Assembly: GCA_035714085.1 (NCBI GenBank)
Contig: DASTMP010000285.1
Coordinates: 3,659 to 67,658, forward strand
Length of the DNA stretch: 64,000 nt
Direction of reading: 5' to 3'
DNA from: Blastocatellia bacterium
Lineage (GTDB): Bacteria > Acidobacteriota > Blastocatellia > RBC074
Made by a program: the position numbers and the translations under genes. The notes below the pieces were generated by a model, which was given only the letters and a program-made list of their open reading frames with translations, made no database searches and was not told where the DNA came from. The first letter of the stretch is position 1. Each line of letters starts with the position of its first letter. Positions 31,381 through 38,997 of this stretch are shown piece after piece.

Positions 31381-31464
31381 GCGGATGTGGCGGAACTGGT
31401 AGACGCGCAGCGCTCAGGACGCTGTGGGAGCAATCTCGTGGAGGTTCGAGTCCTCTCATCCGCA
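31381..31464 (+). tRNA. tRNA-Leu (anticodon CAG), type II with long variable arm
   Basis: Acceptor stem GCGGATG/CATCCGC, D-arm GGCGGAACTGGTAGACGC, anticodon stem-loop CAGCG-CTCAGGA-CGCTG, a variable arm of about 16 nt, T-loop GGTTCGAGTCC, and discriminator A. Confidence 0.85.
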
Positions 31465-31472
31465 TCAAATTC

Positions 31473-31502
31473 AAAGGGGCGACCATATCGGTCGCCCTTT
31501 TC
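31473..31502 (+). terminator. Rho-independent terminator after tRNA-Leu
   Basis: aaggggcgacc-atat-cggtcgcccc followed by tttt. Confidence 0.5.
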
Positions 31503-31657
31503 ACTGAACAGATGCGCCATATTCATTCTCCACCTTTTGGCGCCGCCCCGCCATCTATCGAATTGACGAATTTCGGAGTAGAGCCGTAACAACTTCTGTT
31601 AGCACAGGACTCATAAAACATTCGCGTCCGCGCATTCGACTCTAGCGGCGAGTAAAG

Positions 31658-37600: not shown

Positions 37601-37735
37601 GCGGTAGCTTGCATCGGGCGGCTGGATTCCAATGATCACAGATTGGGACGCGCCCTCCGCGACGGTGTCCGCCGGGGCGGGGGCATCTTCTGTCCCATAC
37701 CACAAGACCATTCCATCATGCTCAAACCTCGCCAT
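31658..37735 (-). CDS. Giant uncharacterised cytoplasmic protein (about 2,025 aa) in an operon with an encapsulin shell gene
   Basis: Perfect AAGGAGG RBS 6 nt before the ATG at 37735. The ORF track's earlier start at 37804 lacks an RBS. No signal peptide or TM segment at the N-terminus. One Gly-rich segment (GFGTGGSGYGGGTGYGGSGS). No catalytic motif I recognise. GC is about 50% against about 62% for the flanking genes. Confidence 0.7.
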   Translation of the reverse strand: MARFEHDGMVLWYGTEDAPAPADTVAEGASQSVIIGIQPPDASYRIELRYRLNQGPVESIPAAWLRNDLTNQAQYFEAQFPAFSPGDSVEYTPVCNCVGRQVPCLKEPIEFISSFRVIKADVEQNPALARAEMPPITATAADPRPDVISLSSPGDSKELSRVLFNTQMMERAPGLQQPTTLLQSDKSDAKSALSVSTEVAQFNRLETLAAKSQVAVDKTMPSHLPSDQKLPLSMIAGKFTIVTNDISQIVSKQDFLFYDLSVEFSESRMEDVQILHYPFTDDIQIQDNSTVLFSFPDSQLSLYDNVVSPVWVKVKSFDGSLLWSREYQANDQRLAYLEIKVPLQKPVILVSADKRLIHDKAKKLRGQVLEFGKECALKDLTVVIQAKAPGDTLWRIVGAGTTDCVGNFSMPYPFGVFTEAQALVSVTPNSPAAMNVTAVRNGDQTIADDFLYLLINDLECPHVDTKEDCDCQTKKKVSRLPDQADLIGSDEYSQDIGGSCVNLSTPNRTLSEFNYQAIVRTSDPDVANYTLKKVDVAQPGIALVLLSEISRSVSALDSAVRNPIFGKWYDSQKLRDAYAKIDAMRSISANASSADITTALNSVDAIIYLFNVIVPESEIENYAAFKAVQDNARELKAHLQAALVPRTETHYELVGGAEKRERKRVDLDNPVAWQDDDQHLSLYQAVTVATGHILHYKSEIKADGYSLGELIYSLPLAPGQKKQIVVFDSSHRLVGAESQALSQGERLTAGIVDEREIVNQLGGSITESLRGSSSANTSGISAGFGTGGSGYGGGTGYGGSGSAVLGIAGGVANANSNASQDSSRNISQFFQEKLRQSIMQNADSYRQLNASVVTTVQEGQQYGVTSEVVANHNHCHALTMMYFEVLRHYAIFQKLSSVEECVFVPLLMTNFTAQNIYKWRDVLAKFLLPMPAETYLQSFNSMSVSGSQHPLLKAFDANERIKTNYANVDYPEGAYDDERIQFIRGNMRIRVELPRPRTRFDRIMSLPITTQTFTTKEIDPEATAAANLDFARRMAEYSAKQAAIAPLTFGLSLIVDPPPHPPGLQYTTTQHEVLVRQAIFDAFMSLDANYQSVPPAECIRVVNFKPPATISIGPLGSISPTFSILDFFADNDDDKKQWTIYANLLGYTDVLTMLNAYFKGNLISEWDAIFYNDIAPLIFEKIVSDITLSEFSTDFSSETKYKGGERVIRLNLTGSTSKKRNQLPQQLNLTVRDQKFRDLKNYITFNVENLTISYSTAHYNGVLYSGNVNDDLFDDTGAALFIPENAEEKRSPRKEDAYLVYKLLEHLNSSIEYYNKALWYNLDPDRRFMLLDGFNIQNFNDFGLPIGSRSLASVVKNELITITGNSLVFPVAAGYKVSQSYIVEQIGDGAEIVSLLDHYQPLTPIEPYRISVPTKGVFAEAVQGVCNACEKIETDRLQDWTRFPNTDEPTAISPVTPPTPVVTDWQAAFKDFATPIVNIQNAPASPAPGAGLAGLSELLGKSGVFKDITGLDANQQNVLRTYLSNQENAKAFGEMAKEMAMQQHNTQNSGSIMDSITAAKNSGDITKQEAGQLVKDHLQQQIDGGETKKAELEKEKRQAIPSVAKAGVDAINRGGTDVTATTADPSGFIESVTVKNSALADSVTSQGFGSSASEQAYQAVVELLGKPSSPSGDDFYVVVDKLKQLEWSDLSGVLEQLASKGPSLDGMTWLELFNERTKDMIVDDRVLAATKAILIAHGGRTISTADDVEGAGSLGQLMLRLKAVDQIRILERLGFRDEAAEGAIASIYAAAVAAGLVQLPNALAMAAAPFDFGDWDPPGNQDIHFYVGNAVHEAIANYYKGRHPSPSHLVFTNTINVQTIADKIASDFGSTPDKIARALGERKPDIFEYSTEHLPPMFAYEIKPWAWGEIGLAKVAVDCAALHEAGVGAVPGPQRISGTQGVVPAPNGWAVFESPAPGLIVYQVFQASQVEIDARDQARGRKSQKVNAVSLRGAVTLTAASVGLYEIAAAIIELLLERGFILALL

Positions 37736-37859
37736 ATTCACCTCCTTGTTCAGGATGGCATAGGTGCGCCATTCAATATCCCTTCGACAGGCCGAGAGCG
37801 CCACTCACTCCCTGGCCGTCTCCATTCTGGCTCTTCTCCAGGCTCGGATTCCCGACCCT

Positions 37860-38744
37860 TTAATCCGGCTCTACAATGGGATCGATCCCCTGGAACTCGA
37901 GGCGGAGCAGCGCTCGGGGATCGCGGACGACGAACTGGATACGCTCGAAGACGCGAAAGCGAGATAGATGGTCATCCTGCTGCGTAAAACCAGTGATCGT
38001 GTCTTGACTGACCACCAGACTGGTCGCCTCGCCGCCGAGCGAGACGAGCAGGCCTCGATTCGCAGGGAGGCCGACAGTGGCATGAAATCCACCGGGGAGG
38101 AGCGGTTTCATACGGTCGGCCGCAGTCACCAGTGTGGGTGTCAGAGAGCGATGAGAATCGGCGTAGCGAGGCGGCGAGAGGAAGAGCGCATAGGGGCCAG
38201 GCTGACCCTGGGCTACAAGTCTATTGATGCCATCCGATACTGCGTCAAAATTTGCTTCCCCGAATATACCTGGGGGATTGCCTTCGGGTGGAACCACTTG
38301 TCTGGCCTGCGCAGCCAACCCCAAAAGCCCCTGGCGGGCCGACTCGCGGCGTTGGATATTGATCCCCGGCGGCAGCGGAACTGGCGACTCCCGCCCCCCG
38401 AAGAGAATGATCTCCTCGGCCATGGCAACCGACTTGGCGGCCATTCGGGCAAGAATTACCGCAGTGCCCAGCACAACTTCCTTCTCGATCTGGGTGTCGG
38501 TCAAGCTGAAGGATTGTGAGATCTCGACGAAGGGGATGGTGTTCTCATTGATGGTCAGGTCTTTGATGTCCACCGCGTCAACAGGGACACTGATGGCGTT
38601 GTCCATGGGGCGCGGCATAAAAACTTTGGCAGCGACCCGGATGCGATTCACCTCGTCGTGGACCGACTGGTCGATCTGGTCCCAGATATTCGTCTCCTTC
38701 CATGACTCCACTTCGTTTCGTTTGAGATTATTGTTTCCGGCCAT
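37860..38744 (-). CDS. Family-1 encapsulin (Linocin_M18-like) nanocompartment shell protein
   Basis: 294 aa, with an AAGGAGG RBS before the ATG at 38744. C-terminal half: GPYALFLSPPRYADSHRSL...GGFHATVGLPANRGLLVSLGGEATSLVVSQDTITGFTQQDDHLSRFRVFERIQFVVRDPRALLRLEF. It aligns position by position with T. maritima encapsulin (GPYTLVINTDRW...[53 protein letters not shown]) and with M. xanthus EncA (GPYAVVLSPRLYSQLHRIY). Confidence 0.75.
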   Translation of the reverse strand: MAGNNNLKRNEVESWKETNIWDQIDQSVHDEVNRIRVAAKVFMPRPMDNAISVPVDAVDIKDLTINENTIPFVEISQSFSLTDTQIEKEVVLGTAVILARMAAKSVAMAEEIILFGGRESPVPLPPGINIQRRESARQGLLGLAAQARQVVPPEGNPPGIFGEANFDAVSDGINRLVAQGQPGPYALFLSPPRYADSHRSLTPTLVTAADRMKPLLPGGFHATVGLPANRGLLVSLGGEATSLVVSQDTITGFTQQDDHLSRFRVFERIQFVVRDPRALLRLEFQGIDPIVEPD

Positions 38745-38997
38745 TGCTATTCCTCCTTGCATAAGTTGTTAGGGCAGAAAGTCTGAGCGTTGATGCTATC
38801 GACGCAAATCGTGGCTTTCGCCAATAGCGTTCAACCATGAAAGCGATATTTGTCGCTGAAAGGGGCCAGACAATCTCAATTTTCTTTAGACTCAGTAGAT
38901 TCAAAATAGTCTTTTTGCGATACAATAAGCCTCTCAGATCGGTCGCCTGTAACTTCAGAAATAAGTAGCATCACCTTAACGCGAAACAGGAGGTCCC

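Follow-up and report, generated by a model that had tools for sequence, protein, structure and literature searches.

The stretch of DNA analysed here, a window of 64,000 nucleotides from the genome of a soil bacterium of the Blastocatellia (Acidobacteriota; GenBank assembly GCA_035714085.1, contig DASTMP010000285.1, positions 3,659 to 67,658), carries an islet of 11,057 bp (31510..42566) directly downstream of a gene for tRNA-Leu(CAG). The islet consists of four genes in two divergent units: a giant protein and an encapsulin-like shell protein on the reverse strand, and a sigma factor of the ECF43 type and a Hanks-type Ser/Thr kinase on the forward strand. The best explanation of the locus as a whole, which we hold with considerable confidence, is that the islet was inserted as part of an element that has since decayed, that its site has served as a hotspot at which cargo is exchanged, and that the kinase and the sigma factor would control a shell together with a toxin-like giant.

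The tRNA-Leu site and its occupants

The extent of the insertion follows from a comparison with empty sites in three related contigs from two lineages (L014; L026 and L027). In L014, a JGI contig of 500 kb that is the closest long relative (HD protein 90% identical to the window's), the order is HD, tRNA-Leu(CAG), a conserved terminator hairpin, 63 bp, MFS_3, LarA and aminotransferase. Two more distant contigs, found by a pattern search of metagenome contigs for the tRNA 3' end plus terminator (L026, L027), have the tRNA and the hairpin followed by the MFS_3 orthologue within ~65 bp; this orthologue is 70% identical to the window's at the nucleotide level in L014 and 58-76% identical at the amino acid level over the aligned segments in L026 and L027. 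Since the tRNA, the terminator and the MFS gene lie within ~65 bp in these relatives, the window holds a four-gene insertion. In the junction alignment the sequence common to all junctions ends with TTTTCAC(T/C)GAAC (window 31498-31509; shared with L014) and resumes just before the MFS start codon, which places the insertion at 31510-42566. These comparisons show an 11-kb insertion, with its boundaries, in what appears to be a short ancestral spacer between tRNA-Leu(CAG) with its terminator and the MFS gene of a Blastocatellia genome. The first-pass annotation, which was made from the sequence by eye, had proposed a horizontally acquired islet beside tRNA-Leu, and the synteny of the relatives, with their empty, islet-bearing and Tc-toxin-bearing sites, bears this out. 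It had let the block end in the AT-rich divergent region at 38.8-39.0 kb, which gave an extent of 7.6 kb and left the sigma gene outside; that region turns out to be a spacer internal to the unit, which includes both the ECF sigma factor and the Ser/Thr kinase.

The tRNA gene itself (31381..31464, forward strand) is where it had been annotated, as ARAGORN and Rfam agree (54.9 bits, the sole match of the Rfam scan). It is preceded by a sigma-70-like promoter (31339-31367, TTGACA-17-TAGTAT) and followed by a terminator hairpin with its stem at 31477-31497, plus TTTTCACTGAAC (31475..31509; hairpin scan), which forms the left junction and is kept in L014, L022, L025, L026 and L027. A second terminator hairpin follows the kinase gene near the right junction (42502..42545, hairpin 42516-42542, forward strand; hairpin scan).

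Relatives at a similar distance show what else can occupy the site. Identical copies of the locus are found in JGI and Logan metagenome contigs, and L011 and L012 are occupied like the window. In L022 (HD 94% identical) the same islet lies at the same site and in the same orientation, with a shell 89% identical to the window's and a giant of 2,271 aa, then tRNA-Leu; the DNA identity between window and L022 is 89% for the flank and 91% for the encapsulin gene. In L025 (HD 92%) the tRNA and the hairpin are followed by a convergent gene for a Tc-toxin A subunit, represented by its 3' end (Pfam TcA_TcB_BD 5.2e-30 and 2.7e-6). The window appears to hold a relic of such a TcA-like gene in the spacer between tRNA and giant gene: 22 nt (31557..31578, forward strand) match L025 858-879 in 21 of 22 positions and in the same orientation (E 4e-6), within the stretch that encodes the end of the TcA_TcB_BD domain, and among loci L001-L031 this 22-mer otherwise occurs only in copies of the window's own sequence. 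The ~30 nt after the hairpin (window 31501-31531) also resemble L025 despite the different cargo. Among close relatives, then, at least three states of the site occur (empty, islet and Tc-toxin gene), and it seems that a Tc-toxin cargo was replaced by the present one or recombined with it.

The most likely route of acquisition is a decayed integrative element of which the cargo end survived and was later reshuffled. The islet would be what is left, at the cargo end, of a larger integrative element that has lost its backbone by deletion; the site would then have become a hotspot at which toxin cargo was exchanged by recombination between related islets. A close relative, L021, has the same four-gene module, with identities to the window of 80% for the kinase, 55% for the sigma factor, 87% for the shell and 74% for the giant up to aa 1654, beyond which the C-terminus is unrelated. 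Homology to the window stops at 42386, 14 bp past the kinase stop codon, and directly beyond the kinase L021 continues with HTH_17 (excisionase-like), a TacA/TacT pair, Prim-Pol/PriCT_1 and a DdrB-like gene. The mosaic identities and unrelated C-termini fit a reshuffled decayed element, and a hotspot is suggested because of the Tc-toxin gene in L025, its relic in the window and the mosaic identity between islet copies.

Several findings weigh against integration by a mobile element. Genes for an integrase, a transposase or a recombinase are missing both from the islet and from its immediate flanks, HD and MFS_3; the non-coding stretches of the islet measure at most 253 bp, and there is no room in it for an integrase or transposase. 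The 22-nt tRNA 3' end has no second copy anywhere in the window with up to 3 mismatches allowed, nor is there a repeat of it at 38.7-39.0 kb, where the best local score of 21 lies within the null; the first-pass annotation had likewise seen neither an integrase nor a direct repeat of the tRNA 3' end, and both statements hold. No att-like repeats were found in the related loci. The segments 31462-31501 and 42502-42545 share an imperfect 43-column match with a score of 23, ~97th percentile of random window segments (95th = 22, 99th = 24), and both are terminator hairpins; the hairpin after the kinase gene is a possible, unproven, degenerate att-like repeat. With no tRNA 3'-end repeat and a hairpin likeness at only ~97th percentile of chance, site-specific integration is unproven. 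The junction, moreover, lies 45 bp past the tRNA gene, not inside it as with classical tRNA-targeting integrases. The islet hence resembles tRNA-linked genomic islands in its position directly downstream of a tRNA gene, its absence from close relatives, its possibly somewhat atypical composition, its accessory toxin-like cargo and the alternative occupants of its site, but it differs from them in that it has neither integrase nor tRNA 3'-end repeat, begins after a terminator and comprises only four genes, two of which are host-like in composition.

A serious rival, if on balance an unlikely one, does without an integrative element altogether: the cassettes would have been swapped by homologous recombination through the HD/tRNA-Leu and MFS_3 flanks after uptake of DNA from related Blastocatellia. 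The lack of a recombinase and of a proven att repeat, the three occupancy states among close relatives, the mosaic identity to L021, the host-like composition of the shell and kinase genes, and the first 30 nt past the terminator that window and L025 have in common despite different cargo would all agree with such an exchange. Yet in L021 this module has Prim-Pol, a toxin-antitoxin pair and an excisionase-like HTH as its neighbours, the pair of shell and giant genes lies beside integrases and transposition genes in other phyla, and the original entry from outside the lineage would still require a vehicle.

On the left the islet site is bordered by an HD/HDIG-domain gene (30623..31342, forward strand; Pfam HD), a conserved core gene whose true start is probably later, as homologues have ~195 aa. 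Its product is 83-95% identical to proteins of Blastocatellia/Acidobacteriota metagenome-assembled genomes, and the gene adjoins tRNA-Leu in L014, L022 and L025; in L016 and L018 no tRNA-Leu follows HD. The left side of HD/tRNA-Leu is also rearranged relative to relatives: in the window a transaldolase gene and a gene for a 659-aa lipase/thioesterase-like protein (27718-30443, reverse strand) separate HD from a small open reading frame (ORF) at 27150-27578, the L014 homologue of which directly adjoins HD. On the right the MFS_3 transporter gene (42575..43876, forward strand; JGI gene call with Pfam MFS_3 in L011) is followed by methyltransferase, LarA and aminotransferase genes. The small methyltransferase gene (43873-44454, forward strand) is missing at the corresponding position of L014, where the gap is ~140 bp, and represents a further small indel.

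The giant protein and its encapsulin-like partner

The giant gene (31658..37735, reverse strand) encodes 2,025 aa (~220 kDa) from an ATG at 37735, or 2,048 aa if translation began at a GTG at 37804. The protein belongs to no family in Pfam, NCBIfam or PADLOC and has no sequence match in the PDB, and PHROGs returned only one, non-significant, match (E 0.098). Pairwise mapping and a 44-sequence alignment divide it into a variable N region (aa 1-234, with a beta-sandwich at aa 1-118), core A (235-535), a variable linker, core B (650-1635), which contains an invariant NHNHCH motif and conserved Cys pairs, and a variable C-terminus (1636-2025). A homologue search, with scoring confined to the 8,000 candidates that had most words in common with the query, yielded 147 homologues; for the 120 of them that were listed, the best local alignment with the giant shows 48-73% identity, and their sources are many metagenomes and named organisms from five phyla. 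The named organisms include Corallococcus (Myxococcota), Chitinophaga, Pedobacter, Chryseolinea, Galbibacter and Pontibacter (Bacteroidota), Duganella and Massilia (Betaproteobacteria), Thioploca and Methylumidiphilus (Gammaproteobacteria), Streptomyces and Gaiellaceae (Actinomycetota), and Bacillus and Paenibacillus (Bacillota). The two cores (aa 235-535 and 650-1635) align in nearly all of these 120 homologues with 37-73% identity per segment. The C-termini of homologues carry at least 8 different Pfam domains, among them Peptidase_C70, Amidase_2, GH25, VanY, DUF2272, beta-lactamase-like and OmpA, and even the close relatives L021 and L022 diverge from the giant after ~aa 1654. A conserved core with exchangeable C-termini is, on these alignments, the layout of a polymorphic toxin or lysin.

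The genes that surround giant homologues are suggestive of mobility and conflict: a transposase (L007), an integrase with a PLD gene (L008), CATRA (L009) and a STAND/HerA NTPase (L010). A search of viral contigs gave one match, L031 (IMG/VR), which appears to be the same element as L008, and distant relatives of core B occur on plasmids and one phage-labelled contig. A single-protein scan of genome contigs found 3 loci only, none of them acidobacterial. The survey shows what by sequence comparison appears to be an uncharacterised family of ~2,000-residue proteins, patchy across phyla and often located beside mobile-element and conflict genes. Two observations speak against the giant itself being a toxin. 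Searches of Pfam and the PDB with its C-terminal 390 aa found nothing, even at E 10, and no immunity gene lies downstream, where 193 bp of non-coding sequence, with no ORF of 80 aa or more, separate the stop at 31658 from the tRNA gene. By eye, aa 1800-2025 (window 31661-32338) contain H…KPDIFEY…YEIKP, reminiscent of a PD-(D/E)xK nuclease motif; this reading is by eye only, lacks Pfam or PDB support and is not claimed. The protein ends in a hydrophobic tail, …IIELLLERGFILALL.

The first 118 residues of the giant (window 37382-37735), referred to here as the N-domain, are predicted with confidence to form a beta-sandwich (pLDDT, the predicted local distance difference test, ~90). The neighbours of this fold are generic beta-sandwiches of the carbohydrate-binding module (CBM) or Ig-like kind (best 5i0d, E 2e-5, TMq 0.53), which do not reveal a function. 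The N-domain has no Pfam family; an exhaustive search (proteins P0361-P0510) recovered 322 sequence clusters that contain it, nearly always at the very N-terminus. Its long carriers are mostly TcA-like Tc toxins of 2,100-3,700 aa without the giant core, and a minority of giant homologues share the first 120-150 residues of the window's giant.

The shell gene (37860..38744, reverse strand; 294 aa) lies 124 bp upstream of the giant gene with no terminator-like site between them. Its product matches the HK97-fold family Linocin_M18 (Pfam PF04454, 3.9e-18) with 66.1 bits against a cut-off of 24.3, over aa 163-269 only; NCBIfam encap_f1 scores 80.3 bits, below its 100-bit cut-off, and the match to family-1 shells in the PDB (e.g. 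4pt2; 7e-12) covers aa 136-286 only. By these profile matches the protein is a divergent family-1-like encapsulin.

Shell and giant genes recur as neighbours far beyond the Blastocatellia. It had been predicted beforehand that giants with the N-domain are encapsulin-linked, and the two look-ups made (P0027 and P0059) agreed. The gene for P0027 (L028/L029) has a Linocin_M18 gene 126 bp upstream, with a prokaryotic Argonaute (pAgo) system, two tyrosine integrases and a Tn3 transposase nearby; that for P0059 (L030) has one 92 bp upstream and lies between Tn7-like tnsB and tnsC/tniQ, beside an SpvB/TcdB gene. The pAgo system consists of HTH/PD-(D/E)xK/Piwi (L028 1-21398), and in L030 (1-23560) beta-lactamase genes are also found beside the pair. 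A shell gene thus stands upstream at 92-126 bp in all three independent clades with the N-domain and in none of the five without it (Fisher exact p ~0.02, own calculation); none lies near the giant homologues of L007-L010 and L013. The shells of the paired clades are only 30-34% identical to that of the window. These loci show a recurring association of what are predicted to be shell and giant genes: it is found in three independent contexts, and two of these have many mobile-element genes.

A related arrangement is seen in L024 (8442-18300), where the gene immediately after that for a shell with 50% identity to the window's encodes a TcA-like product of 2,945 aa (VRP1, ABC_toxin_N, Neuraminidase-like). 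With a TcA_TcB_BD protein encoded after these two genes and one of >2,400 aa before them, the encapsulin-like gene lies within a Tc-toxin locus; no N-domain was detected in the TcA-like product. An N-domain-bearing TcA-like toxin occurs, in turn, on a plasmid of Streptomyces chartreusis together with a GH18 chitinase and a TcB/TcC gene, with no shell gene. The N-domain was considered as a universal encapsulin-docking module and rejected as such, given its absence in the L024 gene and the plasmid carrier without a shell. Judging from these gene contexts, the link between shell and N-domain is real within the giant family and not universal, and the N-domain is not a dedicated shell-docking module in every context.

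A physical or functional coupling of shell and giant protein may be deduced from this pairing, and the features of the operon argue both ways. The C-terminus of the giant (…ERGFILALL) does not seem to resemble the targeting peptides of family 1, and presumably contains no recognisable one. In family 1 operons, furthermore, the cargo gene usually precedes the shell gene (Andreas & Giessen 2021, PMC8346489), whereas the partner gene here follows it. The same paper reports frequent horizontal transfer of family 1 operon types (PMC8346489). The islet resembles the operons described there in its predicted HK97-fold Linocin_M18 shell of ~290 aa and in being a two-gene unit with one partner. It differs from them in a shell that falls below the NCBIfam cut-off and aligns to solved shells in its C-terminal half only, and in a downstream partner of 2,025 aa that is none of the six described cargo types. 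By its sequence the cargo belongs to no described encapsulin operon type (PMC8346489), nor to the Tc toxins.

It is improbable that shell and giant are mere neighbours and that the encapsulin has another, unseen cargo or none. The missing targeting peptide would fit such an arrangement, as would the five of eight independent contexts of giant homologues examined that have no encapsulin neighbour and the Streptomyces plasmid. It is countered by the same order and spacing (shell, 92-126 bp, giant) in three clades in spite of the low identity of their shells, by a pairing that tracks the presence of the giant's N-terminal domain, and by the shell gene that adjoins a TcA-like toxin gene in L024.

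Regulation and proposed function of the islet

The forward unit of the islet opens with the sigma factor gene (38998..39570; 190 aa; Pfam Sigma70_ECF 1.6e-61; TIGR02999 232 bits), whose product carries the QTTA motif (HTLQTTALVHEAY) as LQTTAL in region 2.2. The kinase gene (39586..42372, forward strand) begins 16 bp after it and encodes a Hanks-type Ser/Thr kinase of 926-928 aa with C-terminal TPR repeats (Pfam Pkinase 2.4e-44 and TPR families); the arrangement is the same in L021. PADLOC matches of the kinase reflect generic kinase-domain similarity and were not used. The hallmarks of ECF43 are a co-located Hanks kinase and QTTA in place of DxxD in region 2.2, with activation by phosphorylation of that threonine (PMC13147305). 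EcfP-PknT of Vibrio parahaemolyticus and EcfK-PknS of Xanthomonas citri, the latter of which switches on a type VI secretion system, are ECF43/kinase pairs (PMC13147305). By its QTTA motif and the adjacent Hanks kinase, the pair in the islet is a predicted ECF43 module.

The two units diverge from an intergenic region (38745..38997; 43.9% GC) which presumably holds the promoters of both. From this position and from the conservation of the module in L021, the ECF43/kinase pair may control the shell-giant operon: the kinase would sense a cue and phosphorylate the QTTA threonine of the sigma factor, which would then turn on the divergent operon. Together with the sigma gene, the spacer is the least conserved part of the module; its DNA is not conserved in L021 and L022, where homology starts at 38771. 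The likeness to the described ECF43/Hanks pairs (PMC13147305) thus extends to the adjacent kinase, the QTTA in region 2.2 and a location beside a putative weapon locus, while the islet's pair differs in the TPR repeats of its kinase, a target promoter that is only putative and a sigma gene that is the least conserved gene of the islet.

The cargo itself invites comparison with known toxins. The giant could be a polymorphic toxin-like effector, with homologues whose ends are peptidoglycan hydrolases, OmpA, a papain-like protease and domains of that kind; the N-terminal beta-sandwich would mark those giants that travel with an encapsulin gene, and the shell would store, scaffold or release the giant. 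Polymorphic toxins combine a conserved trafficking or core region with a variable C-terminal toxin, and the MuF toxins, which are packaged in phage heads, provide the nearest analogy. Polymorphic toxin systems were reportedly set out by Zhang et al. in 2012 and MuF toxins by Jamet et al. in 2017. The giant resembles such toxins in its conserved core and in C-terminal modules swapped even between close relatives (L021, L022), and the islet recalls the MuF toxins in capsids through the association of its giant gene with a gene for an HK97-fold protein. The giant differs in that it has neither an adjacent immunity gene nor a known secretion or trafficking domain, and its core has no Pfam family or fold match; the HK97 protein of the islet, unlike those of MuF systems, is an encapsulin-type shell without other phage genes.

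The likeness to the Tc (ABC) toxins consists in the N-domain that giant and TcA-like proteins have in common, the TcA-like gene at the tRNA-Leu site in L025, the TcA-like gene abutting a related shell gene in L024 and the SpvB/TcdB gene beside the pair in L030. The giant differs from them in having none of the TcA domains: VRP1, ABC_toxin_N, Neuraminidase-like and TcA_TcB_BD, all present in other N-domain proteins, were not found in it by Pfam at E<=0.01. Nor are there TcB/TcC genes in the islet.

In its most far-reaching form, which we put forward tentatively and regard as rather doubtful, this interpretation makes shell and giant a portable 'packaged weapon' of two genes: a virus-derived shell would store, scaffold or release a ~220-kDa polymorphic toxin with an N-domain shared with Tc toxins, and the cassette would move between phyla on integrase islands and Tn7-like transposons and in Blastocatellia would be wired to an ECF43/kinase switch. 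The literature offered no paper linking encapsulin or linocin with Tc toxin, toxin complex, polymorphic toxins or an Acidobacteria toxin cargo, and 'encapsulin' and 'polymorphic toxin' were found together only in an unrelated paper on a Pseudomonas phage.

The cassette could alternatively be an anti-phage or abortive-infection defence in which the giant is a suicide effector that is held by the shell and released on infection, an idea to which we give little credence. It would be in keeping with the neighbours of the family elsewhere (pAgo with PD-(D/E)xK, TIR/SEFIR, CATRA, STAND/HerA NTPase and PLD), with the lack of an immunity gene beside the giant gene, and with the occurrence of Hanks kinases in known defence systems, for which the islet has generic kinase matches in PADLOC only. 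However, neither giant nor shell matches a PADLOC model, the variable C-termini are mostly cell-wall hydrolases or binders, which are typical of exported antibacterial or lytic proteins, and the N-domain is shared with Tc toxins.

Base composition and wider significance

The first-pass annotation had been drawn to the locus by a low-GC block. The dip is real: 31381-38997 has 53.2% GC and is the lowest-GC stretch of 7.6 kb in the window (minimum 53.2% at 32001; mean of 7.6-kb windows 56.7%, sd 1.3). Its size had been overstated, since the contrast is one of 53.2 versus 57.4%, ~4 points, and not of 46-52 versus 62%; the window as a whole has 56.9% GC, the flanks 1-31380 and 38998-64000 have 57.4% each, and the islet (31510-42566) has 54.6% against 57.4% in the rest of the window. 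Nor is the block uniformly low: low values are confined to the giant gene (52.8%, falling locally to 48.5% between 33.5 and 35 kb), the sigma gene and the divergent spacer of 253 bp. This spacer is the lowest in GC among the 18 intergenic regions, whose mean is 52.5%.

For each gene an expected GC content was calculated from the amino acids it encodes and from how the remaining genes of the window use synonymous codons. After this correction the giant gene remains low, with an expected GC of 55.7% and z -8.2, and with 60.3% observed against 68.1% expected at third codon positions (GC3; z -7.7); of its deficit of ~4.6 points, ~2 come from amino acid content and ~3 from codon choice. A mild deficit also remains in the sigma gene (z -2.3 for GC, -3.0 for GC3). 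Dinucleotide delta* in 5-kb windows peaks over 31-43 kb at 70-85 x10^-3, most others lying at 23-63 and 42-47 kb reaching 80.

Three results blunt the compositional case for a foreign origin. The shell gene (58.3% GC, GC3 68%, z +0.3), which is fully host-like, and the kinase gene (z -0.3) cannot be told apart from the host, and so either the donor was compositionally similar or the acquisition is old. Three other genes of the window equal the giant gene in deviation (5422-7677, z -6.4; 47405-50119, z -8.3; 56988-58748, z -6.0). Homologues of the giant gene follow the GC of their hosts (40-64%), yet lie 2-7 points under their own flanks in 7 of 9 other loci, which makes the deficit partly a family trait. 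The correlation of tetranucleotide z-scores, a check that the first-pass annotation had suggested, did not separate the islet from the rest of the window. Composition by itself leaves the question of foreign origin undecided, and the compositional argument is weak.

The composition, with shell and kinase genes host-like and giant genes GC-poor against their flanks in most hosts, would suit a native operon of four ancestral genes whose low GC stems from the giant's composition and weak codon bias, as would the same genes at the same site in L022 with a similar DNA identity in flank and encapsulin gene, but this is very improbable, for it needs at least two independent clean deletions (in the L014 and the L026/L027 lineages), each restoring the ~65-bp tRNA-terminator-MFS spacer, and must contend with the Tc-toxin gene in the equally close L025, the relic of that gene in the window and a cargo family that is patchy across phyla and often beside mobile-element genes. 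The notion of a simply compositionally distinct operon, which the first-pass annotation had kept as an option, was accordingly set aside.

The compositional outliers elsewhere in the window form a mixed group. The gene at 5422-7677 (forward strand), which is unrelated to the islet, encodes a BNR/Asp-box, sortilin-like repeat protein and has a low GC3. An ORF of 586 aa without a Pfam match (56988-58748, reverse strand) is the lowest-GC gene of the window (50.3%, GC3 57%), below the giant gene. A further ORF of 904 aa without a Pfam match (47405-50119, reverse strand; GC3 z -7.1) marks a second variable region of the window: it is flanked by aminotransferase and peptidase S9 genes, and in L014 its place is taken by CTP-transferase, Tex and OsmC.

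As an event of genome evolution the islet is ordinary, a small accessory block of a known kind in a variable spot adjacent to a tRNA gene, and empty sites can reveal such a block even where there is no integrase, att repeat or strong GC signal. Its cargo is less so. The giant belongs to a large family that has no Pfam model and no solved or recognisable fold, and whose ends are exchangeable cell-wall hydrolase or protease modules. A divergent encapsulin gene travels with those giants that bear the N-domain, a domain that also heads Tc toxins, and this pair of shell and giant has hitherto been undescribed. If the pairing is functional, it would extend the encapsulins from metabolic nanocompartments to inter-cellular conflict, and it would offer a compact and testable system of two genes with a sigma/kinase switch. 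Should shell and giant indeed be a packaged weapon, they would represent a new functional class of encapsulins, for the storage or delivery of toxins rather than the compartmentalisation of enzymes, as well as a new family of giant bacterial toxins.

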